IMG/VR virus record: IMGVR_UViG_3300037722_000136
Coordinates: 1 to 46,642 of that record
DNA from: a virus
Lineage: Duplodnaviria; Caudoviricetes
Reading direction: 5' to 3' (one strand)
Length of the DNA stretch: 46,642 bases
The stretch's first letter is position 1, and each line of letters begins with the position of its first letter. This document shows, one piece after another, positions 1-16,666 of the stretch. The notes under the pieces were generated by a model that saw nothing but the letters and a program-made list of their open reading frames with translations, was not told the DNA's origin and ran no database searches. Made by a program: the position numbers and the translations under genes.

Positions 1-16
1 ACTAGAACTGGAAAAA

Positions 17-142
17 GCGATCGGCCTTTCCTTACGTTCTTTTGAGTAAGTTGGAAGCATTAGTGTCTCCTATCGATTTTTCCAGTTCTAGTCGATTTCG
101 ATATTCCGCAATCACATCCCCGTGGCAGGCGAGCGGTTTACA
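17..142. repeat. Terminal direct repeat (assembly overlap), copy 1; indicates a circular 46,500-bp unit
   Basis: 17-142 is identical to 46517-46642. The ORF 45559..46560 starts at the position equivalent to 60 and overlaps the end of ORF 32..364, so gene order is continuous across the join. Confidence 0.95.
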
Positions 143-364
143 ACAACATTCCAGAACCGCATCGCGGGGGAGGGACGATGCAATGCGACGGTGTGTTACA
201 GCCCCGGGATCAGGTGACATAAACCATGCCCGATATTTTCGCACCGCTTCGCCTCGGTCGTACGGCCCATATGGTTTCACCCTAAACGGATTTCCCAAGG
301 GACCCGGCCGCATGATACTATGCGTACCTTTGGCGTGGTGTTGGTTCACTACGGTCACGGTCAT
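32..364 (-). CDS. DUF4326-family protein
   Basis: VVN...RPGPLGNPF...R.EAV.KY..WF...LECCCKPLACHGDVI matches the family pattern GNPF / L.C.C.P..CHGDV. Confidence 0.8.
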   Translation of the reverse strand: MTVTVVNQHHAKGTHSIMRPGPLGNPFRVKPYGPYDRGEAVRKYRAWFMSPDPGAVTHRRIASSLPRDAVLECCCKPLACHGDVIAEYRNRLELEKSIGDTNASNLLKRT

Positions 365-666
365 GTCTTACGATCCAGATGCTCAATCATAGCGACGGCG
401 ACCGCCGCCACCTGTATGAGTTCGTTGCGAAGGGCGTTCCGGCGTTCCGGGGTGTCCAAACCGTGAACCCCTATCTCGCAGACTTCTTCTGCGACCTCAC
501 CGAATTCTTCAGCGAGAATCGCAAGCCAGTTCGGTAGGGGGCGGGAGTCGAAGTTGTCGATCGAACCCCACTTCTGATCCTGACGGTGACGTTCACGTAC
601 CACTAAATCGAGAACTTGGGCCAGTACATCCGTCGTATATCTATCGGAACTAATAAGCACTGCCAT
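361..666 (-). CDS. MazG-like all-alpha NTP pyrophosphohydrolase
   Basis: RER.RQD.KWG, WLAILAEEFGEVAEE and ELIQVAAVAVAMIE; SD AAGGAGA upstream. Confidence 0.75.
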   Translation of the reverse strand: MAVLISSDRYTTDVLAQVLDLVVRERHRQDQKWGSIDNFDSRPLPNWLAILAEEFGEVAEEVCEIGVHGLDTPERRNALRNELIQVAAVAVAMIEHLDRKT

Positions 667-678
667 CGTAGGTCTCCT

Positions 679-3033
679 TTATCCCGGACGACCGAGGTAT
701 TTTCTCTCGGCCCAATCCTTCAGTTGAATTCCTCGGAACACACTCATCTTGTGTGCCCCTTTCACATAGGTCTCACGGGTCACGAACTGTGCATTCGACT
801 TGATTCTCTCGAAGAACTTCGACTTCGTCCACGTTCGCAGCCCACGTTCTGTGGCCCACGCGAGCCACGCATCGTACAGTTGATTCTTCAAAACCTCGGC
901 CCCATCTTCCTCATCGCAGCATTCTTCAAGGAAGGCCGCGACCGGGGACGTAGTTGTCCGCCATTCACGCAACGACTCAACGCTCTCATCCGGCAGGGTG
1001 AACCTGTTCCCGTTGTCCCGCAACATCCGCAAACCTTCGAGTGCCCAGACCACAATGCCGGGGGCCTCGGCGATCAGCTTATCCCGCAACCCGAAGTCTT
1101 CTTGCCCCAAGAAACTTTTCTTGAAGTCGATGATGTTCAACCGGGCTTCCAACGCCCCGGCGTGGTCAGGCAGTTCGGGCAGTTCGTTCGATGCGATCGT
1201 GAACTTGCATTGCAGCCTGTGATTCCGCAGCGGCGAGATGTACTTCCGGTCTATATTAACCGGGTCCTCACCCACTATATTCAGCAAAACTTCGAGAGCC
1301 TGCATATTATCTGCTTTGTTCGGAAGGCGGGCATCGGGCATAACCGCGATCTGCGTGCCCACCAACGACTGTAATCCAAAACGCTCTGTAAGCTGTCGAA
1401 AGTTAATACTTGCACACTGGTCGATCCCGACGATGGATTCAAGAACAGCCAGAGCCGTTCCCTTCCCTGATCGTCTCGGTCCACGCAGTAGCATAAGTTT
1501 ATGGAGACTTGTGTCCGGCGTGAGGCAATACCCAAACCACTCCCTGAGAAGGTGCACTTTAGAGGAGTCGTCCCCGAGTGTAGACGCAAGGTATCGACGC
1601 CACTCAGTACACTTAGCGATTGGGTTGAACGGGAAGGCCAGAGCGAACGTAGTAAAGAGATCAGGCGTGAGATCATGGAGGTATTCCTGCTCATCGGCAC
1701 CGATGAGATATTTTTCAACGTCGAGGACGCCGTTACTGAAAGTGATGAGGTTGCGGGGGTCGGGGCCTGTGGCATCGTTGATCCAGCAAGGGACGCGATC
1801 TGCTCGCACAGGGCATGGGTAGAGCAGGGCATCCATGATGTTGTTGACGGAATTTCTGGTGCAGACAAGCGGTTCCAGTGTGAAGTCCCCTGTTGGGGTG
1901 GGCTTCCGCACGAACTTGTTGTCGCACCACCCGTAGAGCGGCCCCCGGACATCCATTTTCTCATCGACTTCAACATACTTTAATCCATTGTATCTGAACC
2001 ATTGGTTGTTGTGATACCGCAAGGTATATCGCGGCCCCATCTTGTGCTCATAATCGAGCCATCCCCGGGCGATCGTCAAGGGCTTATTGTCTGGGAGAAC
2101 AATGTCCTCAGCACTCTCCCGCCCATGCTCACCTGCATATGATAGTAAGTCCTGTTGCGATACTGAATCTTTTCGTACCCATTCCCGCAAATCCTTGCAG
2201 TGATCTGGCGGCAACACCATGACGCATGAGGGGCAGATTCGACGCAGGACTTGGAAAGTAGCAATGAGTCCTTCGTGACCGGGGCGTTGTCCGGTCTGAG
2301 GATTGATTTCGTCATTCTCCCCGACAATAATGACCGGCCGAGATCGCGCCAAATCTGCAACCATGCTAAGCCCCGCAAGGTTGCTAGGGCGTCCGACCGC
2401 GACAAACCCGAGATCAAGAGCCGCTGCTGCATCAGACATTCCCTCTACGATAATCACCGGATGATCGCTCGGGGGCAGGATCGTAGCCCCCTTCTTCAGT
2501 ACACCCTCTGGTTTGAGGATATGCAAATAACCCATCTTCTCGGGCTTCGTTGCACCCTCGCGGACGCGGATACAGATCACGGATTTAGGGTCCTCCGGGT
2601 CCTCGGCGGACAGCAGGCACCCGTCCGGTTTGCGGCACACCGGGCAGTCAATCCCGGCGTCCATCGTGCGTACCCAATTGTGCCGGCCGGGAACGTAGGC
2701 ACGGGCACCCTGTTCGTGGTCGGGATTGATCGGGTACACCAGACCGTGCTTTGAAGCAGGGAACATGGGCTTCCCCTTGAAGTCCGGGTTCGTACTTCGT
2801 AAACTTAGCCCCACCACCGACCCATCGACATCACGCTCGGGGACGCACCACCACCCCTGATAGTTCTTCCCCTTCTTGAACTCGACGATCGGAACCCACC
2901 CGACGCCGAATTGAGCGAGGGATGCCGCCGACACGCCAAGTTGCGTGGCGAAACTATCAAGCATCGCGGGGTATACGTTCCCTTGAAATGCCTCTGCTAG
3001 TTTGTCAAATTTTTTCGACAAAGGGGACCCCAA
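679..3033 (-). CDS. DNA primase-helicase (TOPRIM primase + Zn finger + D5/P4-type SF3 helicase + C-terminal winged helix)
   Basis: TOPRIM IIVEGMSDAAA and GEND; CPVC..PDGC..C Zn motif; D5_N-like LITFSNGVLD; Walker A GPRRSGKGT; motif C IASNELP. Start codon uncertain (TTG). Confidence 0.9.
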   Translation of the reverse strand: MGSPLSKKFDKLAEAFQGNVYPAMLDSFATQLGVSAASLAQFGVGWVPIVEFKKGKNYQGWWCVPERDVDGSVVGLSLRSTNPDFKGKPMFPASKHGLVYPINPDHEQGARAYVPGRHNWVRTMDAGIDCPVCRKPDGCLLSAEDPEDPKSVICIRVREGATKPEKMGYLHILKPEGVLKKGATILPPSDHPVIIVEGMSDAAAALDLGFVAVGRPSNLAGLSMVADLARSRPVIIVGENDEINPQTGQRPGHEGLIATFQVLRRICPSCVMVLPPDHCKDLREWVRKDSVSQQDLLSYAGEHGRESAEDIVLPDNKPLTIARGWLDYEHKMGPRYTLRYHNNQWFRYNGLKYVEVDEKMDVRGPLYGWCDNKFVRKPTPTGDFTLEPLVCTRNSVNNIMDALLYPCPVRADRVPCWINDATGPDPRNLITFSNGVLDVEKYLIGADEQEYLHDLTPDLFTTFALAFPFNPIAKCTEWRRYLASTLGDDSSKVHLLREWFGYCLTPDTSLHKLMLLRGPRRSGKGTALAVLESIVGIDQCASINFRQLTERFGLQSLVGTQIAVMPDARLPNKADNMQALEVLLNIVGEDPVNIDRKYISPLRNHRLQCKFTIASNELPELPDHAGALEARLNIIDFKKSFLGQEDFGLRDKLIAEAPGIVVWALEGLRMLRDNGNRFTLPDESVESLREWRTTTSPVAAFLEECCDEEDGAEVLKNQLYDAWLAWATERGLRTWTKSKFFERIKSNAQFVTRETYVKGAHKMSVFRGIQLKDWAERKYLGRPG

Positions 3034-3038
3034 TTTAA

Positions 3039-3171
3039 GACCACAGACGGGACTCGAACCCGCACCTTCCCATTATCCGATCCAAGTCTCGTCTGTGTAC
3101 CCGCCTTGGCGGACAGGACGTACGACGATTAGTTCACGGGTGGGTTTGCAACCAATTACAACACTGTGGCC
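3039..3171 (-). tRNA. tRNA-like gene (His-GUG-like) with a 59-nt insertion in the anticodon loop
   Basis: Acceptor GCCACAG/CTGTGGT with G-1 and C73; D-arm TTGT-AATTGGTT-GCAA; anticodon stem CCCA/TGGG; 5-nt variable loop; T-arm GCGGG-TTCGAGT-CCCGT. Fills the gap between two genes. No encoded CCA. Confidence 0.7.
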
Positions 3172-3187
3172 TGCCAGATATCAGTGG

Positions 3188-4081
3188 TCAAGAACCCAGA
3201 GCAAGGTCCTTGACAACGAGATCGCGGACCTTGGCCCAAAGCTGTTCGGTGAATTCGCTTTCATCGAGGTTATCATTGTCGCCGGAGATTTCCTGAACCG
3301 ATTCAATCCACGCCTGCTCGATGTCGTTGTCGGAATTACCGCCCTTGTGGTTGCAGACGTATTCCCACGCATCGCCTTGTGACACGGCATCCGGGCGATC
3401 GTCTGCCGGGGATTCGGCAGTCGCCTTCGGTGGGGTCTTCGTCGCCTTCGGTGCGGTCGAAGGGGCCGGTTTAGAAGGGGCAGTTTCCGATGTAGACGGC
3501 TTCGCTCCCTTCGTGGCCGTAGGAGACGACGCGGCTGCTGACGGCTTTCCCGGCTTCGCGGCCTTCGCGGCGGCGGGCTTCGCAGTCTTACCACCGACCT
3601 TGATCTTCGGGAGGGCGGCGAGTTTCGTCGCATCGAGTTTCATCAGTTCGCGGTTCGGCGGTGCGTCGGCAGCGTCGATCCAGTTCAAACGGATGGTGGT
3701 CTGTTCGTTGTAGAAGTTCTCCTCCATGCGGAACAGAACTTCCTTGCCGACGAACTTCTCACCATTGAGGTCATCGAATTCCTGACCGTCCCAACCCAGA
3801 GCAAGTTGCACCTGCTCGTAGTTCATCAAGGCAGTTTCTTCGGTGAACTCCTCATTGTCCTTGAACAGCACGAGGAAGCCGGTCGTGGTCTCGTCGAACT
3901 CCGACCAGTCGATGTACTGCTCCGTTTCGAGTTCGTAGTGCTTCAGTTCAGCCGGGGAATCAATGTATTTTTCTGTGGCCTGAACCTTGATAACGAGTTG
4001 CGGGAACCCGTTCTTCGTGAGGGCGAGGCCATGTTCCAACACCACGCCCTTGTACGTTCCGATCGTGTCAATCTTTCCCAT
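3188..4081 (-). CDS. Putative single-stranded DNA-binding protein (DUF669-like OB fold, Pro/Ala/Lys linker)
   Basis: GTYKGVV...TKNGFPQL...FVGKEV.F..EENFYN pattern, low-complexity linker, position after a Sak4-like ATPase. Confidence 0.55.
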   Translation of the reverse strand: MGKIDTIGTYKGVVLEHGLALTKNGFPQLVIKVQATEKYIDSPAELKHYELETEQYIDWSEFDETTTGFLVLFKDNEEFTEETALMNYEQVQLALGWDGQEFDDLNGEKFVGKEVLFRMEENFYNEQTTIRLNWIDAADAPPNRELMKLDATKLAALPKIKVGGKTAKPAAAKAAKPGKPSAAASSPTATKGAKPSTSETAPSKPAPSTAPKATKTPPKATAESPADDRPDAVSQGDAWEYVCNHKGGNSDNDIEQAWIESVQEISGDNDNLDESEFTEQLWAKVRDLVVKDLALGS

Positions 4082-4096
4082 TATGATCTCCTTGAA

Positions 4097-4516
4097 TTAC
4101 GCTGTCACCAGCTTGGGTCCGCCGTTAAACGGCTTTACTTCGTTGTCGTCGTCCGAACTCACTGCCTTGCGATCCGGGTCGGGGTCAGCGAGAATAGCCA
4201 CGATCTGCACCTGATCCACAAGGATGAGGTTGCGGCCACCGTCGTCCTTGTACTTTACGCCAGCCGGTTGCAGGGCGACGTGATCCTGACTGATTCGACG
4301 TGCGGCGTTGATCTTCACCAGCACCCGCTGCCCAACCGCTAAGTCTCGGGTCAAGGGCAGTTCATCGGCGTGATCGCACATTCCGGGGCCGACCGCTACG
4401 ATTTCGCACTCCTGATATTCATTGCTGTTCTCGCGGGGCAGAATAATGCTTCCGACTTTTTCCTCCGCTTTCCGAATTTCAACGACACTGACGAGAGTGT
4501 TCCGGGGTTTCAACAT
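4097..4516 (-). CDS. groES: GroES/Cpn10-like co-chaperonin
   Basis: MLKP.N..V.V, mobile loop EEKVGSIILP, EIVAVGPG, LAVGQRVLV, C-terminal LVDQVQIVAIL. Confidence 0.8.
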   Translation of the reverse strand: MLKPRNTLVSVVEIRKAEEKVGSIILPRENSNEYQECEIVAVGPGMCDHADELPLTRDLAVGQRVLVKINAARRISQDHVALQPAGVKYKDDGGRNLILVDQVQIVAILADPDPDRKAVSSDDDNEVKPFNGGPKLVTA

Positions 4517-4640
4517 CGTTATCCCTTTCCTTACTATGGGCCCTGTGCATCACCGCTACCATTATGTTAAGTGATGCAAGAGCGATCACGAACAGACAGA
4601 CATCCACGACCGCCGTGTGGAAAAGTTGAACATCGATCAT
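4479..4640 (-). CDS. Small single-TM membrane protein (53 aa, not in ORF track)
   Basis: MIDVQLFHTAVVDVCLFVIALASLNIMVAVMHRAHSKERDNDVETPEHSRQCR; ATGA overlap with the upstream stop; GGAGG SD. Confidence 0.5.
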   Translation of the reverse strand: MIDVQLFHTAVVDVCLFVIALASLNIMVAVMHRAHSKERDNDVETPEHSRQCR

Positions 4641-5566
4641 CCATCCACCTCCGCACCTTCAAACATTAGAAGCCAAAGTGAGTTGTCTTCCGGCGAATCG
4701 AAACTAATGATGGGCGGAAGGTGACGCCCGTCAATAGGTCTCGATTTCGCCATGTAATACTGAGCCCCGCCCGTGAAGATCGCCCGGCTCGAATCACCTG
4801 TGACCTTCCCGACCCGTGATTGATCGTTGTCCTTCGTCACTTCCATATCGTCGTATCCGATACGGAAGACGTGGTCAACCCACTCGCAAATCTCGGTGCG
4901 GATCGGGCCTTGCTTGTTCTCGGTCAGCTTGGGCACATCCTCGTAGTAGTCCACGCCGGCCGCGTTTGGCACCGTCGCCTGATCCAACTGTGCAATCAAG
5001 ATCACGTTGCGGCCAGAGCGGATCACCGTGTCGAAGTCTGTCAACAACAGGCGGAACTGATCGAGAACGTGACGATAGCCCTTTCCGTACCCGAACTGTT
5101 CAAGGTTGCGGGCCTTGCCGCCTTTCTCCAGTGGCACGTTCTCAATCACGTACGCCTCACAGAGCGGGATCGCACGGGTGATTGTATCAACTACCAGACT
5201 GCCCCCCTTCGGAACCAGAGATACGGATTGACGAACTGCGTCCCGTAAGTCTTGCCACGTTTCCACACCGTCGATCGCGGCCACAGCTTCGCCGGTGATC
5301 GGGTTTGCGATCTTCCGGGCACCGTCGTCAAGGGGGATGAACACCGCACCGTCGAGTTGAGCAACTAGGGTGGTCTTGCCCGTTCCGCTCTTTGCGTAGG
5401 CCAGAATCTTCTCACCTTCGCCTTCGCCGGTCAGGGGCTTGACGCTGAATGACTTCGCTACGTGAGTCGGCTTATCCACCCGTGCGGGCGGGGCTTTCGC
5501 CATAGGCTTCGGCCTCGGCTTCGTCGCCGCAGCAGGGGGTTTCGCTGTCGGGGGTTTAGTCGCCAC
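4637..5566 (-). CDS. Sak4-like / AAA_24 recombination ATPase
   Basis: Walker A AKSGTGKTT, Walker B LVVDTIT, GYGKGY, VILIAQ, EWVD.V, AKSR. Confidence 0.85.
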   Translation of the reverse strand: MATKPPTAKPPAAATKPRPKPMAKAPPARVDKPTHVAKSFSVKPLTGEGEGEKILAYAKSGTGKTTLVAQLDGAVFIPLDDGARKIANPITGEAVAAIDGVETWQDLRDAVRQSVSLVPKGGSLVVDTITRAIPLCEAYVIENVPLEKGGKARNLEQFGYGKGYRHVLDQFRLLLTDFDTVIRSGRNVILIAQLDQATVPNAAGVDYYEDVPKLTENKQGPIRTEICEWVDHVFRIGYDDMEVTKDNDQSRVGKVTGDSSRAIFTGGAQYYMAKSRPIDGRHLPPIISFDSPEDNSLWLLMFEGAEVDG

Positions 5567-5620
5567 TGGTCTCTCCTTTATGATTGTCGCCGTGGGCCAA
5601 CGATTTTCGTACGTAAAGCA

Positions 5621-5845
5621 TTACGATTTGTCTCCGTAACGGGCGGTTGCTTGTTCGTGGATCAGTTGGATGCGTCCGGCCAATTGCATCATACAGTCAT
5701 TGTTGTTAACACCGCAAATATCGAAAGGCTCGGCTGGAAGCCACCCCTCGCCCCACGGCTTCAGGGTTGTCGAGCCCACGAGCCGGGGCCTAGGATTGCC
5801 GGCGGGGAAGGACATGGTGATCGTGAGGTCATAGGGCTGTCGCAT
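5621..5845 (-). CDS. Hypothetical protein
   Basis: ATG at 5845 preceded by AAGGAGACCC. Confidence 0.5.
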   Translation of the reverse strand: MRQPYDLTITMSFPAGNPRPRLVGSTTLKPWGEGWLPAEPFDICGVNNNDCMMQLAGRIQLIHEQATARYGDKS

Positions 5846-5855
5846 GGGTCTCCTT

Positions 5856-6236
5856 TTAGTCGCCATCAATCATGTCTCCGTTAATAGTGGGGTCTACGAA
5901 AATGGTACGGCCGTGGGCCGTATCGTGATGTTTGCGGCAAAGCCACCGAACATCTAGCGGCCGGTTATAGTCATCGTGATGGGCTTCCGATTTGCCCCCG
6001 CAAATTTCGCAGGGACGCCTTATCATACGCCCATCACGAATGGCGTTATTAACAGCGTTTCTCGCTCGAACTTTCTCTGGATGTTCCGCCCGATACGCGG
6101 CCATCCTCTCCCGATCCCGGGCACGATGTTCTTCAGTATCCCGCTTAATTTTCAGCGAGTCCTTAATCTTGTGGTAATACGCCCGTTGATAATCTCGGTG
6201 AAACTGACGCCGCTTTTCAGGATCAGCATAAGGCAT
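5856..6236 (-). CDS. HNH endonuclease-like protein
   Basis: A...VNNAIRDGR..R.PCEICG..SEAHHDDY.RPLDVRWLC.KHH..AH. Confidence 0.8.
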   Translation of the reverse strand: MPYADPEKRRQFHRDYQRAYYHKIKDSLKIKRDTEEHRARDRERMAAYRAEHPEKVRARNAVNNAIRDGRMIRRPCEICGGKSEAHHDDYNRPLDVRWLCRKHHDTAHGRTIFVDPTINGDMIDGD

Positions 6237-7459
6237 TAGTCCTCGTCTCCCAACGACTCACCATGAATGGCAGGGTTGAATATGCGGCGGTACCCATCGG
6301 GGGTTGTCTTGCCGTCACACACTTCGTCGGCACCCGGCCCATAGCAAATCTTCAACATCGGGCAGGGGAACGGGGATCGGCAACTGTGTTCATTCTCAGT
6401 CCAGCACCCGTTCTTCTCGTACATCTTCATCGCCTGATAAGTATTGTAGACCTCAATGCGGGCCTTCGCTAAGTCCTTGTCAGTTCGGGCGATTTCTTTC
6501 CTCTGAAAGTAGAAGTCAGGGCGGGTATAAATGTCTTGCAGCAGACGGGCACCGTACATTGCCGGGGTTTCGCGGATCGCAAACCCCTTCTTACCGGGCG
6601 TAACATCGGCCGGCGACCCGTCCACTGCCACGGTCGCACTGACTTGGGCTTCCTTACCCTCGCCGATCGAGAACGGCTCGGCCGCGATATCGAATGTCAC
6701 CCCCTCGTATTCTCCGGTTTCAATCAGGGTCGCGGTCGCACCTTGGGTAAGGGTCGCGGGTTTAATCGTCGGCTTACGCCATACGTCGTATAGCGTGTTG
6801 CCGAACTGAGTGTCGGGGTTCGCTTCGAGGTACGCGGAAACTTCATGGGGAAACTGCCCGGCTTCGATCATGTCGTGAAACGCGAGAGCGTACATGCTTA
6901 CCTGAGTGTCCTTCTGCGACTTCTCCCAGAAGTCAGAATCAGGATCGATGCTACGGCTAGTAGACTTACGCTCGACATTGCCGACCATCCCTCGCCACTT
7001 GACTATGTGATCGATCTTCCCCACCCGTATAACTTCAGACGTAAGCAACGGTAAGCCGGTGCGGGGGGCGTGGAGCGGGAGGTCGAACTTGATTTCGCTT
7101 GCGATCGGGGTGACGGGGTCGTTGCCCCAATGCCACAGATACCCGATGAACGACATCACTAGAATCTGACGCTCGATCTCCCATTCCTCGGAGGTCTTCG
7201 ACGCAGGGATCGTGTCGCCGGTGTAGCATTCGTTCAGGTGTTCGACTACCGCAGCCATCGCAGCGTCGGCGTCGGATGCCGTGCCCATGCTGTTGTGGTA
7301 TATCTCGTGAATGCAGTGCCACGCCGTCCCGACTCGCTGCGAATCCGTGTCTTCGGCCAGACGCAACCCTTCGCGGTATGCTAGTCTGAAAGCCGTGGGG
7401 CACTTCTTGAAGGTCTGGATCGACGATGCCGATAAGTGATAGCATTGGGGGTTTGACAT
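6236..7459 (-). CDS. PD-(D/E)XK (RecB/Cas4-like) exonuclease
   Basis: LSASSI.TFKKCP, GTAWH, GKID, VERKS, QVSMYA, C-terminal C..C...C. Start moved to ATG 7459 because ATG 7480 overlaps the predicted -10 box. Confidence 0.85.
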   Translation of the reverse strand: MSNPQCYHLSASSIQTFKKCPTAFRLAYREGLRLAEDTDSQRVGTAWHCIHEIYHNSMGTASDADAAMAAVVEHLNECYTGDTIPASKTSEEWEIERQILVMSFIGYLWHWGNDPVTPIASEIKFDLPLHAPRTGLPLLTSEVIRVGKIDHIVKWRGMVGNVERKSTSRSIDPDSDFWEKSQKDTQVSMYALAFHDMIEAGQFPHEVSAYLEANPDTQFGNTLYDVWRKPTIKPATLTQGATATLIETGEYEGVTFDIAAEPFSIGEGKEAQVSATVAVDGSPADVTPGKKGFAIRETPAMYGARLLQDIYTRPDFYFQRKEIARTDKDLAKARIEVYNTYQAMKMYEKNGCWTENEHSCRSPFPCPMLKICYGPGADEVCDGKTTPDGYRRIFNPAIHGESLGDED

Positions 7460-7471
7460 AGGTCTGCTCAA

Positions 7472-7499
7472 AGTATACATTCAAACTTGTCAAAGTCAA
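7472..7499 (-). promoter_or_regulatory. Sigma70-type promoter TTGACT-N16-TATACT
   Basis: Directly upstream of the recombination genes; near-leaderless ATG at 7459. Confidence 0.75.
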
Positions 7500-7502
7500 G
7501 GA

Positions 7503-8141
7503 TTATTCTGATGGTAATCTCAATCGTCTCCGCCCCTGTTTCCCCATCATCAGGATGTGGGCTTGGGCTTCGAGACTGTCCTTCCCGAACTTATCGGCCA
7601 CTGTCTTCATCCCAGAGAACGACCGGGTCCGCAGGAAGTGAGCGATCAGAAGTGCGTCGAGACGGCCGTCGAGGATACCTCCCCGGGGTCCAGCAATCAT
7701 CGCCGCTGCTTCTGGATAATAGGTCCTGAACAGATCAGCCCCGATCTTGTTGGCGTTAGAATGAGTTTTTCCGGGGACGCCGAGCCGACCCTTCCAAAGT
7801 TGGGGTGAGATGAGGTAGTATTCGAGGCCCTTAGCGTGTGCAAAGGCATGGAGAATCCCTTTCTGACGACCGAACCGTTCGCTTCTCTCGGCCCCTTCAC
7901 CAACCCTCGTACTAGGCCACTCAATCCCGACCACACAATCAGGTATACTACGAAGGTGCGTAAAAATTTCCCATAGTTTTGCCAAGTCGATTTCACGTTG
8001 ACGCTCTTTCTTATACGGGCATACCGGCATGTCCCATGTTTTTATAGATGTACCGTCCGCGTTCATCAGAGCGACGGCTCCCTTGAACCCTGCGTCCACG
8101 CCGGCATAGAAAGCATGGGGACCGAGGGGTAGTTTAGCCAC
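7503..8141 (-). CDS. RuvC-like Holliday junction resolvase
   Basis: AGVDAGFKGAVA, VGIE, RFG..KG, ISPQLWK, DGRLDALLIA. Likely GTG start at 8141 with GGAG SD, overlapping the upstream stop. Confidence 0.85.
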   Translation of the reverse strand: MAKLPLGPHAFYAGVDAGFKGAVALMNADGTSIKTWDMPVCPYKKERQREIDLAKLWEIFTHLRSIPDCVVGIEWPSTRVGEGAERSERFGRQKGILHAFAHAKGLEYYLISPQLWKGRLGVPGKTHSNANKIGADLFRTYYPEAAAMIAGPRGGILDGRLDALLIAHFLRTRSFSGMKTVADKFGKDSLEAQAHILMMGKQGRRRLRLPSE

Positions 8142-8670
8142 GTAGCGAACTCCATATATTACACATCCACTCGGCTTGATATACCGCATCAGCAAGGGCG
8201 TCGTGTAATACTGTTTCTCGTGGGGGCTTCTCTGTTGAAATACCGAGTCGCTCCCCCAACTCCATGAATGTTCGCATATCCAAGTCTCGGCGGAAACTCC
8301 ACGGGGTTTTGATCCCGCAATGTACATACGCTTCTCGCAGAATGCGGTTGTCAAAGTTACTGCCGTTTCCCCAGACATAGGCATTATTGGGCAACCATAC
8401 CGCAAGGTACGTCAACACGCGATTAATAGATAGTCGCGGGGAGGCGGTAAACACCGGTAGCCGGGCATCGTCATCCTGCCGCATCCACCACAACACGGTA
8501 TCGGAACACAATCTAAATCCCTGAGCCGCAGAATCCCGAATGTCAACGTAATAGTGAAACCGTTCACCGAGTTTCCCGGATTCAAGATCAAATTGCACGG
8601 CCCCAATCGATGCAATAACAGGCAAGGTACCTGTTCCAAGAGTTTCGATATCAACCATTACGTCACGCAT
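8134..8670 (-). CDS. DEDDh 3'-5' exonuclease (exonuclease VIII/Rv2179c-like)
   Basis: VMVDIETLG, SIGAV.FD, TVLWW..Q, WGNGSNFD..IL, RD.RT, HDALADA..QA. Confidence 0.9.
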   Translation of the reverse strand: MRDVMVDIETLGTGTLPVIASIGAVQFDLESGKLGERFHYYVDIRDSAAQGFRLCSDTVLWWMRQDDDARLPVFTASPRLSINRVLTYLAVWLPNNAYVWGNGSNFDNRILREAYVHCGIKTPWSFRRDLDMRTFMELGERLGISTEKPPRETVLHDALADAVYQAEWMCNIWSSLRG

Positions 8671-8971
8671 TCAACTCTGGCCTCCACAACAAAGCGTCGA
8701 TCTCTTTCTTATCTAACGGTGGGTGGGACACGAACATGTCCTTCACCTTATACATCCGCGACGGGTGGGTACGACTGTTCTCTGCGATCTGTTGCCACAG
8801 TACGAGAGCCGCTCGCAACTGATTGCGTTCCTTTTCAGACAGTGTCGAGAGATACGGCAACAAGTTTACGCTCCTCCCTAACTGCGAACGTATGAATCGT
8901 GACGCGACACGCAATCGGGTCGTATTCAACTGCACGAAAAGTGCCTTGGGTGCGGGTACGTACCATGTCAT
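8663..8971 (-). CDS. Hypothetical protein (start uncertain)
   Basis: Stop overlaps the exonuclease start; no motif recognised. Confidence 0.4.
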   Translation of the reverse strand: MTWYVPAPKALFVQLNTTRLRVASRFIRSQLGRSVNLLPYLSTLSEKERNQLRAALVLWQQIAENSRTHPSRMYKVKDMFVSHPPLDKKEIDALLWRPELNA

Positions 8972-9080
8972 CGGTGATTTGCCCGACAGTCGAAGCGTGG
9001 GGTGATACCGCGTAGTCCTCCCAAGTCTTATCTTGCGGGCTCCCGACCATTTTTTGAAACAGGACTATCATCGCGGTCAT
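8835..9080 (-). CDS. Hypothetical protein
   Basis: ATG immediately after the polymerase stop. Confidence 0.4.
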   Translation of the reverse strand: MTAMIVLFQKMVGSPQDKTWEDYAVSPHASTVGQITDDMVRTRTQGTFRAVEYDPIACRVTIHTFAVREERKLVAVSLDTV

Positions 9081-9082
9081 CC

Positions 9083-11269
9083 TTATCCGGGTTTCTTATA
9101 GGTCTTCGAGATGATACCCTCGGCTCCGAGGGAACAGTCGGGTGCCCACGCCGGACGCTCAGATAGGGCTTTGATTGATGCGTCGAGTGCGGCCGGTCCC
9201 TGTTCTTCAGGTACAACCGCGATGATTTCGTCGTGACAGTGGTGGGCTACGTGGTATCCCCACGATTCCATACGCTCGATCCCCATCCACAGTATGTGCC
9301 GGCTCATGGCTTGTACTATGTTCTCCGTAAGCGATCCGCCCCATGTATGTTCCCACGTCCGATCTAAGGCGTTGTAAATCTGAGCGGACTCGCCGCCAAA
9401 CCGACCTTCACCCATTCGCACCTTGAGGTATTTAAGTTCGTGCCCGGACGGTAACGTAATAATGACATCGCAATCGTCGGTGCTGTCAAACCGCAGGCCC
9501 CGAGCCATTTCACACGGAAGTTTATACTTGAAGGTGTAAATAAACGCACGTTCTACATCCTTCCAGAACTTCACGATCGCGTGGTTTTCTTCGCGGTAGG
9601 TCTTAATCAGGCGTTCGGCAGTAGGAAGATCGATTGCCCCCTCGGCGTAGTCTACCGCCTTCGCGGGGCCCATGCCGTACCCTCCCCCAAGTACGCCAAC
9701 TTTTCCGATACTGTTTCGTGCCCACGCCATCTTCGCCTCGATCGCCGGGATACCACCCTTGCGTGGTTTGCGGCACGGATACCCAAGCACCTTCTCTGCG
9801 AAACCGCAGTAGAGTTCTTCGCCCGCTTCAAATTTAGCGACGAGGTCCCATTGCCCGGCGATCCACGCAAGAACCCGGGGTTCGATCTGGGCCGCGTCGG
9901 TGATGATTAGTACCTCGCCGGGCGGGGCAACGATAACTTCTCGGATCGCCTGCACAAGGTCATGGCTCTTGCGACCTCCGAGGTTCTGTAGGTTGATACG
10001 TTCTCCGCCCGACCAGCGTAGAGTATGGGCACCGCCGTATCGCAGCGGTACCGGAAGCACCCCGTCGTTCGCCCGCGATTGTGATACGATACGCTTCACT
10101 CGCTTTATGTGGTTAGGCCATGATCCGACTGCCACCTTCGCCGCCATGATCTTACGTACAGTTTCGTCCGGGTGCTTTACAAGTTCATCACGTTCGGGGT
10201 CGTCTTTTGCCGTCGCCATCTTTACGCCCGCTTTGTTCTTCGCGGGTTTCCAATAACGCCTCGAGTCATCGCCGGCCGCTTCGATAGCTTGACACAACAC
10301 GGGCTCGAAAGCCGCCCCGCGAAACTCGGTCAAGGTCATCCCTGTACCGGATTCCGCAATCACCTTATCCATTTCCGCTTGCATTGCCGTAGCGAGTTCT
10401 CCGGCCCGAGAATAGGCTACCCGCAACACCGGCTTCGTAAACAGTTCAAGGGTATGTTTGATCGCATAGAGTTCGGTCTTCGGGGCACTCAACTTCGGCA
10501 ACATGAGCGTAAACAATTCCCACTGACGCATCACGTCATTGTTCGCGTACTCACCGAGTTCTACCCGCTGGTCGTCGGTCATCACCGGCAATTGAACAGG
10601 CATCTTCGGCCCCTTCTTCCGGGACTTAGGTTTGTAGAACCGCTGCCGGTTCGTCCAGTTCTTGAACTTCTTCGTGTCGCCCTTCGGGGGCAAGCCGAAC
10701 CGCTTAGTGAGTGTGGCGAGGTCGTTCTTGTCGCGGGAATTCCAGTGCCGTGCGAGCCCAATCAGGTCGATAGGGTGAGCGGGGTATATCCCATACCGAA
10801 ACGCAAGAATTGAAAAGTCGAAGGTCGCGTTGTGTGCGACGACCGAACACCCGTCCAGCGATTGTCCGTAGGTGTTCTGTAGGTGATCCAGAACCATCTT
10901 CGTCCCGGTTTCGCCGTCCCACCAATGGGTAGTCTGTGTGTAATCAGGGAAGGATTGCGACACTTCGAGGACCGACGTGCCCAAAACCTCGAACCGTTTG
11001 TCCATGACGTATTCAATCGTAGACGACTTCTTTATTTCGTAGTCGTCCCCGAAGAATGTTTCAAAGTCAATCATCACAACCGGGAGCGGCCACCCGCAAT
11101 CCTGCAACACCGCCCGCCATTCCGGGCAGTACATCGACCGCATCGGCATCTTATAATGCCCGAAGTCGTGCCATCCCGTGATCGTACATGGGCGGGGTGA
11201 TGCGGCCTCCCGGTCCGGTAGTTTCGGGGGTAACTTAGTCTTCGCTTTGATAATGGTCTTCGACATCAT
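9083..11269 (-). CDS. polA: Family A DNA polymerase with 3'-5' exonuclease
   Basis: Exo I DFET, Exo II AHNATFD, Exo III YANND; T.RWSG, NLQNL; motif A DAAQIEPR; motif B R...GK...LGGGYG; ENIVQA; motif C HDEII. Frame is open to 11392; ATG 11269 preferred. Confidence 0.95.
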   Translation of the reverse strand: MMSKTIIKAKTKLPPKLPDREAASPRPCTITGWHDFGHYKMPMRSMYCPEWRAVLQDCGWPLPVVMIDFETFFGDDYEIKKSSTIEYVMDKRFEVLGTSVLEVSQSFPDYTQTTHWWDGETGTKMVLDHLQNTYGQSLDGCSVVAHNATFDFSILAFRYGIYPAHPIDLIGLARHWNSRDKNDLATLTKRFGLPPKGDTKKFKNWTNRQRFYKPKSRKKGPKMPVQLPVMTDDQRVELGEYANNDVMRQWELFTLMLPKLSAPKTELYAIKHTLELFTKPVLRVAYSRAGELATAMQAEMDKVIAESGTGMTLTEFRGAAFEPVLCQAIEAAGDDSRRYWKPAKNKAGVKMATAKDDPERDELVKHPDETVRKIMAAKVAVGSWPNHIKRVKRIVSQSRANDGVLPVPLRYGGAHTLRWSGGERINLQNLGGRKSHDLVQAIREVIVAPPGEVLIITDAAQIEPRVLAWIAGQWDLVAKFEAGEELYCGFAEKVLGYPCRKPRKGGIPAIEAKMAWARNSIGKVGVLGGGYGMGPAKAVDYAEGAIDLPTAERLIKTYREENHAIVKFWKDVERAFIYTFKYKLPCEMARGLRFDSTDDCDVIITLPSGHELKYLKVRMGEGRFGGESAQIYNALDRTWEHTWGGSLTENIVQAMSRHILWMGIERMESWGYHVAHHCHDEIIAVVPEEQGPAALDASIKALSERPAWAPDCSLGAEGIISKTYKKPG

Positions 11270-11642
11270 GTGTTTGTGGACGGCCGGCCTGATCCCGGGC
11301 TTTGATACTGAGCGGACCTTTGAGACCGATATACCCCCACATTCTCTTACCGGCGTATTCCCGTCGAACTCGGTGGGCTTCCCGGTCATCATCGAGATGC
11401 GGATAGACCCGGCACAGTGCAGCCCCGAACTGCCGGGGCGTCAATTCCACGGCATCGCTGTATTCATCCGTGAACCGAACCCGGTATTCCCTGTATAGTT
11501 GATACAAGATACGGGTCGGTACGAAATCCGTGATTGACGCCCCGTTATCAAGATGAACATAGTCCGACAGGGCTCGCTGTACTTCCTGTTCTTCCGGGGT
11601 TAGGTCGTCTTCAGGCCGTCGTCTTTTCTTCAGGTAGTACAT
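11235..11642 (-). CDS. Stand-alone winged-helix DNA-binding protein resembling D5-helicase C-terminal/RFX-like domains
   Basis: FVPTRILYQLYREY...LTPRQFGAAL..VYP...RR...GKRMWGYIGLK. Confidence 0.55.
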   Translation of the reverse strand: MYYLKKRRRPEDDLTPEEQEVQRALSDYVHLDNGASITDFVPTRILYQLYREYRVRFTDEYSDAVELTPRQFGAALCRVYPHLDDDREAHRVRREYAGKRMWGYIGLKGPLSIKARDQAGRPQTHDVEDHYQSED

Positions 11643-12225
11643 CGCCCCGCCCCATCTGCTTCCGCTCGAACGCTTCGTCCGCTTCCCGTGCTTTCTTCTT
11701 AGCGTATTCCCTAGTCACCAAATGATACCCTGTGGAATCGCTGCCGAACGGGGTGAAATCCTTCGGGTCAAAGGCGAGGAATTGCAGATTTACGATACTC
11801 GCGTCCAGAGAACTCGGATTGCCTAGGACCGCCCGGTAATACTGAAGAACCGCGTGGCCTACGTAACAACAGATTAGATCGCCGAAAGACGACACAGAAA
11901 ATCGCGGGATCGAACCGTCCTGTTTATACTTCACCGTGCGAGGGAGCGGACTGTCTCCGTGCACGGCAAACGACGGGCTTACAGTCTGGACGTATCGATC
12001 AAGAACCGACTGAAGGCTACCGTCGCACTTATCCCGCAGTTGGATAATCAATCCCTTAAGCACAGTCGCTTTTTGGGATAGGGTTTGTTCCATAGGAGTA
12101 TGTGATGACGATGTCGCGGGAAGGGGCTCGGAGATTGGCGTTGGCGATGTGCCGGAAGTCGTTGAGATGGATGAACCACTTACGGGGACACTGGCCGGAA
12201 TCTTCGGTGGTTTGTTGTGTTGCAT
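11611..12225 (-). CDS. Hypothetical protein with Ser/Pro/Thr-rich N-terminus
   Basis: Long ORF packed in the operon; no motif recognised. Confidence 0.55.
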   Translation of the reverse strand: MQHNKPPKIPASVPVSGSSISTTSGTSPTPISEPLPATSSSHTPMEQTLSQKATVLKGLIIQLRDKCDGSLQSVLDRYVQTVSPSFAVHGDSPLPRTVKYKQDGSIPRFSVSSFGDLICCYVGHAVLQYYRAVLGNPSSLDASIVNLQFLAFDPKDFTPFGSDSTGYHLVTREYAKKKAREADEAFERKQMGRGDVLPEEKTTA

Positions 12226-12228
12226 TAG

Positions 12229-12480
12229 TTACCCCTGCTTTGGAAAAGAACCGCCATCCGCGATGGTGAGGGTGCCTGTTAAAACGATACCTGTGTTATT
12301 CCACCGTACCCCGGCTTCTCCGAGAGTGGCGTAGAATCTGTTCACAATTTCTCGATTGGGGCCATTCCCGTTTACATTACCCATCACCCGGAACAGTACC
12401 TCCGCCTCCCGTTCGGACATTTCAATCGTCACACGCTTCGGGGGTTCGGGTTGCGGGATCGATGTTACGGTCACTTTCAT
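12229..12480 (-). CDS. Hypothetical protein
   Basis: ATG 12480 preceded by AAGGAGACTC. Confidence 0.55.
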   Translation of the reverse strand: MKVTVTSIPQPEPPKRVTIEMSEREAEVLFRVMGNVNGNGPNREIVNRFYATLGEAGVRWNNTGIVLTGTLTIADGGSFPKQG

Positions 12481-12664
12481 TTGAGTCTCCTTGTTCAAAT
12501 TTGTATTCGCGGTGTAGACGCCGGCAGACAATGCAGCCAGAAAACGGCGTCTGCGTCGGATTATACGAGCGATGTGTTTCGCATCGTCCAAAGACCAGAT
12601 CGAAGTTATCACGATATTGCTCCGGGTTTGCGATCGGGCGGGGTGTATCACCTTTGCCAGACAT
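12422..12664 (-). CDS. Small conserved phage protein (GKG..PRP...Y..N.D..FG type)
   Basis: MSGKGDTPRPIANPEQYRDNFDLVFG; start abuts the upstream stop. Confidence 0.5.
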   Translation of the reverse strand: MSGKGDTPRPIANPEQYRDNFDLVFGRCETHRSYNPTQTPFSGCIVCRRLHREYKFEQGDSNESDRNIDPATRTPEACDD

Positions 12665-12930
12665 TACGACATAGCCCACCCGACAGAATGCCTTGTTCGT
12701 GTCGGTTCAGGTTCTTCACCCCGGGCCAACGCTTGCTTTACTTTACGGCGTTCCGCACCCCACCAGTCTTCGCAGTGGGTACGCAGCCGTGAATTACGGC
12801 GGGACCGGACCTTCCACCATTGGAATTTATCCCATTCCGAATCCTTTACGGGATCGCGGGTATAGCCCCAACCGGAAGTTGGCCACTCTAGTTTGCGGTC
12901 CTTGTGGGTGCGACTCATTTTCAACCTCAT
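12664..12930 (-). CDS. Small basic Trp-rich hypothetical protein
   Basis: MSRTHKD... pattern; coupled start and stop codons. Confidence 0.5.
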   Translation of the reverse strand: MRLKMSRTHKDRKLEWPTSGWGYTRDPVKDSEWDKFQWWKVRSRRNSRLRTHCEDWWGAERRKVKQALARGEEPEPTRTRHSVGWAMS

Positions 12931-13853
12931 CAGAACGGAATGTCGGCTTCAGTGATCGGAGTCCGTGATTTCACCGCCGCAACTTTCCGGGCGGGGGCGA
13001 TAACGAGGTCGGGGCATTCCCGGGCCAACACCGCACGGGCCGCAGTAACCACGCTCTGAATCTCGTCCTCGGTGGGGGGCCTGATATCCCCTAGATCGCA
13101 GATCACCCGAGCCGCGAGCCCCAGAGGGGTTAACCCCTTCTCAGTCGAGAAACGAGGGGACTTGAAATCGACCCCCTTCACATTGATCTGAGGACCGATA
13201 ACCTTCGGGGGCAGTTTCTTGATCGACGGCGGGGCGGACTTCTTCGCCTTCGGCGGCGTTGTTGGTGCCGGTGCAGACGGGGGCATGGCCCGTGGCGGCA
13301 CCTTCGGTGGCCCGGACTTAGGGGCAGAGGGGGCGGCGTGTGCCGGCGTCGTCTCAGCCAGTGCGGGGGCCGCAGATGTGTTAGATGCCCCGCCATACGC
13401 CGTCACCGCCCAACCCCCCCATGCTTCCTTGCAATCCGCCATTTTGGCGTGAGTGCCGAACGAAGGTTCGTCTTGGATCGCCCAATTGCCGTCCCGCACC
13501 ATGATCGCTTCGAGTTTACCCGCCCCTTTGCCATAGCTGAGAGTGTATGATCCGTCGTCGTTTCGTTTATTGCGAACTTTGAAGTATGTCATGTCCGAGG
13601 TCTCTACAAGAATCAGGTGATCGGGAATTGTGTCGGCGATGAAATCCAGAGGGATGAGCCCCAATCCGGGGCGGGCTTCCTCGGCTTCTTCGACTGTGCC
13701 CCACCCCATGATCGTGCCGCCCGGGTGCTTCAGCCAAGGGCACTGGATTCCGGGGGTTGGGACACGTAGGCCGATCATGGTGTAAAGAATACCACACAAC
13801 CGGACGAAGTCAAGCTGCGATTTCCTTATTTCTCGGGAGTGCCTAGGCAGCAA
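12930..13853 (-). CDS. Hypothetical protein with Pro/Ala/Lys linker and C-terminal DIPF (start uncertain)
   Basis: Long ORF; ends EADIPF, like SSB acidic tails. Confidence 0.55.
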   Translation of the reverse strand: MLPRHSREIRKSQLDFVRLCGILYTMIGLRVPTPGIQCPWLKHPGGTIMGWGTVEEAEEARPGLGLIPLDFIADTIPDHLILVETSDMTYFKVRNKRNDDGSYTLSYGKGAGKLEAIMVRDGNWAIQDEPSFGTHAKMADCKEAWGGWAVTAYGGASNTSAAPALAETTPAHAAPSAPKSGPPKVPPRAMPPSAPAPTTPPKAKKSAPPSIKKLPPKVIGPQINVKGVDFKSPRFSTEKGLTPLGLAARVICDLGDIRPPTEDEIQSVVTAARAVLARECPDLVIAPARKVAAVKSRTPITEADIPF

Positions 13854-14139
13854 TAGTCCGGTAAGTCACCCGTCGTTTCATCCGCCCCGCCCACAGTTCG
13901 ATCAGCCTCCAATCCGTATCCGACCGATCACGCTCCGCGACATGTCGCAGCACGTAGCGGACAACATCCCTGATGTGCTTCCAAGCGAGACGACGGGCTG
14001 CGTGATTATGCTGCCTCGGTTCGTCCAACACAACAAGGGCGTGCTTAAGGTCATCTGTACACACGGGACAAAGACGGGGTCGTCCATCCTTACGGGGTTT
14101 CTTGGTTCCGGGGCATCGTGAATAAGTATACGGTTTCAT
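13843..14139 (-). CDS. Basic hypothetical protein with C..CPVC
   Basis: ATGA coupling with the upstream gene. Confidence 0.5.
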   Translation of the reverse strand: MKPYTYSRCPGTKKPRKDGRPRLCPVCTDDLKHALVVLDEPRQHNHAARRLAWKHIRDVVRYVLRHVAERDRSDTDWRLIELWAGRMKRRVTYRTIAA

Positions 14140-14399
14140 TCGCGGTCTCCCGCATCATCCTCTTCACCCATGCCGTCTTCGATGTCGTCTTCGATGTCGT
14201 CTTCGATGTCGTCATCGAAATCATCGTCCTCAAGATCGAAATCGTCTTCGATGTCGTCATCGAAATCATCGTCCTCAAGATCGAAATCGTCTTCGATGTC
14301 GTCATCGAAATCAGTGTCGTCGAGCAATTCCCCCAGATCAAATTCGGGGTCACGAACAAGACCTTCGCGGTCGTCGATATCACTGTATTGCATTATCAT
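14136..14399 (-). CDS. Hyper-acidic small protein (50 of 87 residues D/E), candidate nucleic-acid mimic
   Basis: Translation; 45-nt and 12-nt tandem repeats; coupled at both ends by ATGA overlaps. Confidence 0.7.
   Translation of the reverse strand: MIMQYSDIDDREGLVRDPEFDLGELLDDTDFDDDIEDDFDLEDDDFDDDIEDDFDLEDDDFDDDIEDDIEDDIEDGMGEEDDAGDRE
14174..14313. repeat. Coding tandem repeats: 45-nt unit x~2.5 and 12-nt unit x3
   Basis: Unit cgtcttcgatgtcgtcatcgaaatcatcgtcctcaagatcgaaat encodes a 15-aa repeat (DDFDLEDDDFDDDIE). Confidence 0.9.
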
Positions 14400-14605
14400 T
14401 TGGTCCCCCGGTTGTTTGGGTTAAAGTCACCCCGATGAATTTTATCTAGCAGCATTATCGCCGCATCACGTTCTGTCTTTCCGCGAACCTGTCTGTCTCC
14501 GAGTCGGCCGACCCACCACCCCCCAGCCTCAAACAGCCGCCCGCCCCGCTGTTCAACTTCCCTGATCGGATTCGGTTTCGTCTTCACCTTCGGCGGGTTC
14601 TGCAT
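14396..14605 (-). CDS. Hypothetical protein
   Basis: ATG 14605 with AAGGAG SD. Confidence 0.55.
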   Translation of the reverse strand: MQNPPKVKTKPNPIREVEQRGGRLFEAGGWWVGRLGDRQVRGKTERDAAIMLLDKIHRGDFNPNNRGTK

Positions 14606-14846
14606 TCTGCCGCTCCTTATAGGTCCGGTACACCTGATTCCACCCCAACCACATACAGTGAAACAATATGTTGAACCCGGGGTGCCCCGTCTGTTTAACA
14701 CCTTGGGACAGCACATGAAGCTGGTTCACCATCATATCGATGGTGGTTTCGATGCCGAATGCCAGCATTAGATCGACGGCTTCGGTTTCAGCGTGTTCTT
14801 CATCCCGCAGTAGGCTCAGGTCTTCGTAATCGAACTCATGGTTCAT
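14553..14846 (-). CDS. Hypothetical acidic protein
   Basis: ATG 14846 lies one base after the upstream stop. Confidence 0.55.
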   Translation of the reverse strand: MNHEFDYEDLSLLRDEEHAETEAVDLMLAFGIETTIDMMVNQLHVLSQGVKQTGHPGFNILFHCMWLGWNQVYRTYKERQNAEPAEGEDETESDQGS

Positions 14847-14847
14847 C

Positions 14848-15636: not shown

Positions 15637-15661
15637 CGTGATAGGTCTCCTTATTACGTAA

Positions 15662-15689
15662 AGTTTACCCCGCGTCGGAGAGAAGTCAA
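15662..15689 (-). promoter_or_regulatory. Sigma70-type promoter TTGACT-N16-TAAACT
   Basis: Follows a terminator and precedes the SD of 14848..15636. Confidence 0.7.
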
Positions 15690-15690
15690 G

Positions 15691-15723
15691 AAAAATCCCC
15701 GGACGAAATCAATCGACCGGGGA
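15691..15723 (-). terminator. Intrinsic terminator
   Basis: TCCCCGG...CCGGGGA stem followed by TTTTT on the minus strand, just after the stop at 15730. Confidence 0.7.
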
Positions 15724-15729
15724 CGGTTA

Positions 15730-16017
15730 TCAGTCACTATTGGGGTCGATCTGTCGGATGGAGATCACCGTGCCCGGTGCCATGCGGGTAAACGGGGAAT
15801 ATGATATAATGGAATCCAAATCCGTATAGACATATTCACCGCTAAGCAACGCAAGCCCGGACTTAGTCCCGTCCGACAGCAAGATGTCCCCGCCGTCATT
15901 CTGAAACAGGCCCGATGGTCGGTCATATTCAGAACCCCTCATATCACGCAGCATATCCGCCGTGATAGCGTCACCGGGGGTAGAATCTTCAAACGATGTT
16001 TCTACTTGCAAGTTCAT
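15730..16017 (-). CDS. Hypothetical protein
   Basis: GAGGAG SD; ATGA coupling. Confidence 0.65.
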   Translation of the reverse strand: MNLQVETSFEDSTPGDAITADMLRDMRGSEYDRPSGLFQNDGGDILLSDGTKSGLALLSGEYVYTDLDSIISYSPFTRMAPGTVISIRQIDPNSD

Positions 16018-16639: not shown

Positions 16640-16666
16640 ATGGTCTCCTTAGTTGAATTGTGATTC

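Follow-up and report, generated by a model that had tools for sequence, protein, structure and literature searches.

A conserved tRNA-shaped element ahead of the primase gene in a family of phages, a candidate processing signal without a decodable anticodon loop

Between the single-stranded DNA-binding protein gene (ssb) and the primase gene of the phage analysed here lies an RNA element shaped like a tRNA. Sequence comparison with related phages establishes it as a family-wide, conserved, non-decoding element that is tied to the start of the primase gene. With a probability that we put at roughly 0.55, it is a tRNA-derived processing (punctuation) signal acting in cis on the phage replication transcript, with no decodable anticodon loop. 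An earlier note on the same DNA had read the element as a tRNA-His gene with a 59-nt intron or, failing that, an unspliced tRNA mimic. The intron reading is almost certainly wrong.

The window, that is the whole stretch of DNA analysed, is an entire virus record of 46,642 nt (IMGVR_UViG_3300037722_000136, Caudoviricetes). Its genes include those for DNA polymerase A, a Holliday junction resolvase, exonucleases, Sak4, GroES, a P4/D5 primase-helicase and an SU10-like portal. The element and its surroundings, all on the minus strand, are laid out as follows.

3039 to 3171, minus strand: the whole tRNA-shaped element, 133 nt, from G-1 at 3171 to C73 at 3039 (Rfam RF00005; minimum free energy (MFE) fold)
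3164 to 3171, minus strand: 5' strand of the 8-bp acceptor-like stem (position -1 plus 1-7), pairing with 3039-3046 (from the sequence; -1:73 covaries in relatives)
3146 to 3161, minus strand: D arm, with U10 in place of G10 and with A14, A15, G18 and G19 retained (Rfam alignment)
3069 to 3144, minus strand: anticodon-like arm, a 5-bp stem with a C-A mismatch that closes an irregular 66-nt extension (3074-3139)
3047 to 3063, minus strand: canonical T arm, 5 bp, loop TTCGAGT (Rfam and the alignment of elements)
3022 to 3038, minus strand: trailer from C73 to the primase start, with an in-frame TTG at 3033 (+5) or 3021 (+17)
3188 to 4081, minus strand: upstream gene, an OB-fold ssDNA-binding protein (ssb, DUF669-like; AlphaFold model and ESM Atlas)
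679 to 3033, minus strand: downstream gene, a P4/D5-type primase-helicase (Pfam DUF5906, Pox_D5 and D5_N; PHROG DNA primase, E 1.5e-68)

The ssb product is without a Pfam or PHROG match. Its AlphaFold model (pLDDT 81.6) resembles PrgE and bacterial SSBs (E 4e-5 to 1e-3), its structure row in the ESM Atlas is PF05037, and the gene has a strong Shine-Dalgarno (SD) sequence (-7.1 kcal/mol). A phage-encoded GroES co-chaperonin lies directly upstream of ssb (4097-4516, minus strand). Elsewhere in the window, a 1440-aa protein of the structural gene block (37200-41522, plus strand) carries a GGDEF domain at residues 508-659 (E 1e-21), an unusual domain in what is probably a virion protein or an ejected one.

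Among the scored candidates, 211 are relatives of the primase, and many of these lie on contigs of 45-48 kb. Its nearest relatives in cellular genomes lie, in four of six loci, in metagenome-assembled genomes (MAGs) of Phycisphaerae. Because these MAG loci sit in satellite-like contexts without ssb, a planctomycete host (class Phycisphaerae), putatively assigned from the primase relatives, is only a lead. The assignment is also unconfirmed because no spacer-like match was found among the matches listed when positions 1-20000 of the window were searched, as DNA, against 401 genomes of the putative host class; the matches were to low-complexity sequence and to the primase. Many weak DNA matches in bacterial genomes fall in GC-rich low-complexity stretches at about 14170-17720. 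At four of the loci in Phycisphaerae MAGs (L113-L116), close relatives of the phage primase stand behind a small ORF, which we take to resemble an AlpA-type regulator, with no ssb; this arrangement suggests P4-like satellites that share their primase with the phage.

The tRNA fold at 3039-3171 is real. A search of positions 2500-3700 with the Rfam tRNA model (RF00005) gave 33.8 bits at 3039-3170 on the minus strand (gathering threshold 29, E 5e-5), with a long insertion standing where the anticodon loop belongs. The whole-window search at the gathering threshold missed the element, and the search of the shorter region recovered it. The MFE fold has the same cloverleaf frame as the Rfam alignment, and the element was the sole match when the window was scanned for a T arm joined to an acceptor stem. 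Default ARAGORN made no call at the element; with relaxed settings it was labelled tRNA-Pro(cgg) with a 57-nt intron. The sequence and coordinates first quoted for it agree with the window, and a contig from a second study spans 2995-3145 with no differences. In three DNA runs no joint skipping the insert was found among the matches listed; both of the best runs came from 2020 sediment, possibly from one campaign. No RNA dataset was listed as containing positions 2700-3700, a result that says nothing about expression. An exact-flank pattern of the element found no match in viral_contigs, and BLAST against GenBank phages gave nothing beyond short T-arm matches to ordinary tRNAs. A consensus pattern built from one subgroup of elements found 23 loci in other viruses; most of them are ordinary tRNAs, and none has a link to this ssb or to this primase.

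Two minor features overlap the element. A 12-codon mini-ORF (3035-3073, minus strand) crosses its 3' half and ends one base ahead of the TTG at 3033, and the ten bases round its ATG are those at the ssb start; both are within the range of chance. A sigma-70-like site within the insert (3099-3072, TACACA-16-GATAAT) matches at 9 of 12 positions, three such sites having been found against 0.8 expected in shuffled sequences; it too is within the range of chance.

Related loci were fetched through primase and ssb alignments and their junctions were then read. In this family of ~46-kb phages, 45 distinct ssb-primase junctions were placed on a tree, and a tRNA-shaped element is present at 16 of them, the present window included. 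At most of the other 29, a GC-rich hairpin, in many cases followed by a T run, comes ahead of an SD sequence; five junctions with degenerate T-loop-like remnants (L029, L042, L068, L070 and L077) are tallied among the 29. The counts leave out duplicate records, L164, distant hits that matched the zinc-finger part only, junctions that have inserted ORFs but lack an element (L018, L028, L035, L069, L071, L072 and L076) and satellite-like loci without ssb (L058, L059 and L113-L116). A mechanical scan for a T arm plus acceptor stem over both strands of 1.37 Mb of primase-fetched loci gave 17 distinct hits, 12 of which lie on the sense strand at the ssb-primase junction; a looser scan, restricted to the junctions, gave the 16 distinct elements including this one. 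All 16 share the T-loop consensus, with G53-C61 in every one, and paired acceptor and T stems of very different sequence; U8/A14 and the 5-bp T stem are retained. The only Rfam family matched at the relatives' junctions is tRNA. The relaxed ARAGORN labels range over Pro, Cys, Lys, Ile, Val, Stop and '???' across the family.

The stems covary. In ten aligned elements, 11 of the 13 acceptor and T-stem pairs change on both sides, and 93.8% of cells pair; none of 500 shuffles reaches this, and slid registers pair at 31-51%. Such pairing percentages are biased upward because the scan that chose the elements selects on pairing, and kinship among the phages also biases the counts. Comparisons between sister phages are the cleaner test of covariation. 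Here the element is 51-74% identical, its D/anticodon middle 36-59% and the first 600 nt of the primase gene 76-87%, and the changed stem positions listed between sisters remain paired, save for a T-C pair in L047. Between L008 and L022, two T-stem pairs differ and are fully compensated, and the anticodon arms are unrelated yet paired.

These sister comparisons bear directly on the idea that the elements are decaying tRNA pseudogenes, without present function, at a hotspot of gene insertion. The distribution is indeed patchy: on a quick tree used for placing the element label, the label changes four times, at least two of the changes being forced by strongly supported branches, and several junctions hold the degenerate remnants or inserted ORFs described above. 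Thirteen of the 16 elements fall within one weakly supported clade, and the present phage lies outside the main element-bearing group, again with weak support. Decay would not, however, be expected to leave compensatory stem changes beside scrambled loops, and no intact decoding tRNA was found among the Rfam tRNA matches in 22 related records. The pseudogene reading thus appears largely refuted by the sister-pair covariation, and we regard it as very improbable.

What varies freely is the anticodon arm. In four close phages whose primase-start DNA is 83-87% identical, the arm has a 7-nt loop (L013), a 6-nt loop (L025), a 29-nt extension (L047) or is a 3-bp stub (L048). Across the family, the loops of the arm measure 4-9 nt; some arms are truncated, as in L048, and long extensions occur in this window, L047 and L062. 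In L060 the insertion is in the D loop instead, and L027 has a reduced middle. A 7-nt anticodon loop is present in two of the 16 elements, both with A33, so that a 7-nt loop with U33 occurs in none.

This variation also counts against a tRNA-His(GUG) gene with a protein-spliced intron at 37/38. The 59 nt at 3075-3133 do exist, within the 66-nt extension at 3074-3139, and their removal leaves 74 nt. Likewise, a cut at 36/37, 37/38 or 38/39 leaves GTG in the anticodon position, and G-1 and C73 are both present; sliding the cut, though, gives GGA, GTA or GTG. Every possible excision from the extension yields C33, never U33, and the product would also carry the C31-A39 mismatch. The earlier note listed C33 and that mismatch; three further defects are U10 for G10, U for A at position 21 and no encoded CCA. 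Unspliced, the element has the extension where a 7-nt anticodon loop with U33 and GUG would be needed, and a 7-nt loop with GUG is found in none of the 15 other junction elements. The proposed identity agrees with G-1 and C73 but fails on the 7-nt loop with U33 and GUG and on conservation in homologues.

The insert itself does not look like an intron. Two of the helices described for it (CTAA/TTGG and TCGTC/GACGA) are in the MFE fold, but the third (CCGC-CAAG-GCGG) appears in suboptimal folds only, and the folding energy of the insert, -15.8 kcal/mol, is ordinary (z = -0.08 against 500 dinucleotide shuffles). The suggested bulge-helix-bulge motif is no better than chance, with three of four central pairs (P = 0.17 in shuffled inserts), one of three pairs of the upper helix in strict register, and C-A at 31:39. 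The catalytic core of a self-splicing group I or II intron takes 200 nt or more; at 59 nt and with no Rfam intron match, the insert was rightly judged too short for one. The absence of EndA was borne out as well: the splicing endonuclease family PF01974 was found in none of 61 genomes of the putative (inferred) host class but in four archaea that served as controls, and the 58 ORFs of the window gave no match to families of tRNA splicing endonucleases or RNA ligases. The free variation of the anticodon at the homologous position, even across the four close phages, is the very outcome that the earlier note had named as refuting a tRNA-His intron. Small tRNA introns of unknown mechanism in Lak megaphages are the nearest phage precedent for the idea, the likeness being a phage tRNA-like gene made longer by extra sequence in its anticodon arm (Devoto et al. 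2019, PMC6784885). From one Lak phage to another the introns are typically identical, and the same tRNA also occurs in alleles that have no intron, whereas here the length and sequence of the arm are free, the exons would make a poor tRNA, and the insert with its exact flanks recurs nowhere in viral_contigs. We consider the spliced tRNA-His extremely improbable. Because the anticodon arms of the relatives vary freely, the 66-nt extension is best regarded as the largest example of a free arm and not as an intron.

The G-1/C73 pair, offered as a mark of histidine identity, has a different explanation. In the ten elements with a paired 1:72, position -1 pairs with 73 in nine, as A-U in four, G-C in three (one of which has an ambiguous register), C-G in one and G-U in one. 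The remaining six elements combine a pyrimidine-C mismatch at 1:72 with A73. Because -1:73 covaries in this way, G-1/C73 is a structural eighth pair of the acceptor stem, of which the present copy has one state among several. The discriminator base is A in seven elements, U in five, C in three and G in one.

A further regularity is how closely a start codon follows. Of the 15 elements that adjoin the primase gene, 11 have an ATG 3-9 nt past N73, with no unpaired SD sequence there; in the other four (L026, L027, L045 and this window) the start lies 17-22 nt after the element and has an SD-like motif. A free SD is thus present at 4 of 15 element junctions versus 21 of 29 others (Fisher p 0.009, the rows not being independent), and 6 of 15 versus 21 of 29 (p 0.05) when SDs are scored over the full upstream stretch, paired bases included; two to three automatic start picks in the hairpin rows look wrong. 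The lack of an SD at the primase is not a host effect, because an SD precedes ssb at every one of the 32 loci (12 of 12 element-bearing, 20 of 20 other), and 15-25 of 25-31 long ORFs per genome have one in all eight genomes checked. Inserted genes can occupy the slot directly behind the element, as in L015 and L159, the element of L159 matching that of L013. Further elements lie at G002:C1:10707-10781, with A-1:U73, and at G002:C1 about 7690-7740, ahead of a 463-aa ORF, each with an ATG within about 2 nt. Three tRNA-like elements (G001:C1:36944-37013, G003:C1:4478-4548 and G003:C1:331-396) have no long ORF right behind. The extra elements in G001, G002 and G003 have odd or missing anticodon arms.

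The half of the tRNA shape that is kept (acceptor stem, T arm and D/T elbow) is what tRNA end-processing enzymes read, and the half that is free is what the ribosomal decoding site and most synthetases read. In the mechanism that we propose, host RNase P would read the acceptor/T-arm half and cut 5' of the 8-bp stem, parting the ssb message from the primase message. A cut of RNase E/G type in the U/A-rich trailer would free a small RNA and shorten the leader of the primase mRNA to a few nucleotides. Most relatives would translate this mRNA by a leaderless-type route, and the present phage would start from a TTG with a weak SD. Overall this would bring about a step-down from abundant SSB to scarce primase, and the hairpin-plus-SD junction probably gives the same step-down in other family members. 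The 59-nt 'insert' would be a tolerated expansion of an arm that neither RNase P nor RNase E/G is expected to read. The leaderless step is less secure in this phage than in most relatives, because the start codons in frame are TTG, one at 3033 (+5) and one at 3021 (+17), the latter with a weak SD-like GGGGT (-6.0 kcal/mol).

We infer the RNase P cut at the 5' side and the RNase E/G cut at the 3' side from the kept half of the tRNA, the U-rich trailers and the enzymes of the putative host class, in which RNase P RNA was found in 39 of 41 genomes, RNase E/G in 31 of 31 and canonical RNase Z, over the TIGR02651 cut-off, in none of 61. Because of this last result, the 3' nuclease is only a guess. 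The alternative raised in the earlier note, an unspliced mimic serving as an RNase P/Z processing signal 5' of the primase, is favoured by the comparative data in its main part and doubtful as to RNase Z. RNase P tolerates acceptor stems of 8 bp and also acts on RNAs other than tRNA, phage RNAs and mRNAs among them (PMC11143913), and E. coli RNase E is described as cutting 1-3 nt past the CCA of tRNAs (PMC2190699). Planctomycetes are described, for one genome, as having few SD genes and a bias that suggests leaderless or S1-dependent initiation (PMC5397173). Further points count against processing. The elements lack an encoded CCA, the absence of which lowers RNase P efficiency on T4 precursors (PMC11143913); the present copy is one of the four elements, out of 15, that have a longer trailer and an SD-like motif, and its starts are TTG; and the three elements in G001 and G003 have no long ORF directly behind.

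Some of these features would suit a stable tRNA mimic that is cut out and acts mainly in trans, as a decoy that draws off synthetases, defence nucleases aimed at tRNAs or other proteins that bind tRNA, with the site before the primase being secondary. The middle of the element diverges faster than the adjoining gene, as in an arms race, and this could equally reflect diversifying selection on a trans-acting RNA; some genomes also have several elements, not all of them ahead of a gene. E. coli HisRS charged some irregular G-1 tRNAs of which translation made no use (Mukai et al. 2017, PMC5389517), and by analogy the present G-1/C73 copy might be chargeable by HisRS if CCA were added. A decoy should not need the fixed position, however, with ATG 3-9 nt past N73 in 11 of 15 cases. 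Moreover, no common synthetase identity is apparent, because the discriminator and the -1 base vary. The elements also lack the anticodon loop that anticodon nucleases would be expected to require. We think a trans-acting role unlikely.

Slightly less likely again, in our estimation, is a folded block that stays uncut in the mRNA, as a 3'-protective or terminator-like structure for the ssb message, a damper on primase translation or an SD-replacing, ribosome-recruiting leader. Such a block would explain why the element alternates with a hairpin and U run at the same site, many elements ending U-rich, and why SD-less starts adjoin the stem, and it sits easily with the lack of canonical RNase Z in the 61 genomes. 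But neither a roadblock nor a terminator needs the T-loop consensus, U8/A14 and 5-bp T stem that are retained, and a scan of the minus strand from 2600 to 5000 found no terminator-like site. A stable stem 3-9 nt ahead of an AUG should, we reason, also hinder initiation unless it is removed.

In animal mitochondria, tRNA punctuation yields leaderless mRNAs. Excision of the tRNA shape here would similarly leave the next message almost leaderless, whereas the mitochondrial punctuation marks are real decoding tRNAs in an organelle and the phage elements cannot decode. A broader and more tentative version of our proposal, which we judge possible without favouring it, is punctuation in the mitochondrial style: tRNA shapes would replace hairpin plus SD, host nucleases would make near-leaderless mRNAs for the primase and other genes, and the released arm would diversify quickly. 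Phage DNA replication would then be tied to the tRNA maturation machinery of the host.

The t-elements of plant mitochondria, tRNA-like structures at mRNA ends with a proposed role in guiding cleavage by RNase P/Z (Forner et al. 2007, PMC1920247), are the closest in design. They too keep a T-arm motif and acceptor stem in a non-decoding tRNA-like fold, and the phage element likewise stands, by its position in the sequence, at a putative mRNA boundary, intergenic and directly before a start codon. Unlike them, it adjoins that start codon (3-9 nt in most relatives), its cuts are predicted, and a search of the putative host class found no canonical RNase Z. We call it t-element-like rather than a t-element since two of the defining features are found in it and the third, mapped cuts, lies beyond sequence analysis. 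The irregular or allo-tRNAs share non-canonical cloverleafs and extended acceptor stems with the phage elements, and some with G-1 are charged by HisRS yet non-decoding. They differ in having 8/4 or 9/3 branches and anticodon loops and in lying in polycistrons near toxin-antitoxin genes, with no tie to a start codon downstream (Mukai et al. 2017, PMC5389517). The C4 antisense RNA of phages P1 and P7 is alike in that host RNase P processes a phage RNA (PMC11143913).

Other RNA classes were tried and rejected. The CI RNA of P4 lies in the operon of a P4-type primase; for an antisense RNA of the C4/CI kind, there was no Rfam C4 match, and the longest complement of the variable arm in its own locus was within the range of cross-locus controls for 14 of 14 elements. 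The insert had no match to its own genome above those of shuffled sequences (12 nt versus 9-16). In YrlA and other bacterial Y RNAs the tRNA-like domain is permuted and its acceptor end is closed by a loop, and a terminal stem binds Ro60; here the 5' and 3' ends form the acceptor stem, and Rfam gave no such match. For tmRNA, the third pair is C-G and not G3-U70, a D stem is present, and ARAGORN and Rfam found none.

Descriptions of processing marks in the shape of a tRNA have so far come mainly from organelles. If the preferred reading holds, such marks would be a regular device of gene expression in bacteriophages, and would offer SD-less genes a route to translation where other genes use an SD. 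No description of such elements in phages was found in open-licence PMC papers and bioRxiv full texts, supplements excluded. Sister phages that have either a hairpin plus SD or an SD-less tRNA shape at the same junction constitute a natural experiment. The family also calls for caution with tRNA finders: what they report in phages as odd suppressors or as 'tRNAs with small introns' can be non-decoding elements.

Further RNA structures accompany the element in some relatives. Upstream of it in five phages (L013:4819-4917, L025, L047, L048 and L154) is a conserved hairpin with the loop TACTCC, which is complementary to an invariant GGAGTA just ahead of the element; the two probably pair as an H-type pseudoknot. 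The outer stem pair of this hairpin varies between T-A and C-G. Two fairly distant phages share a conserved multi-stem RNA motif of ~90 nt, without an Rfam match, right behind the ssb stop codon (L011:4788-4880 and L023:4678-4770), and L023 seemingly has a second, degenerate tRNA-like fold ahead of its main element.
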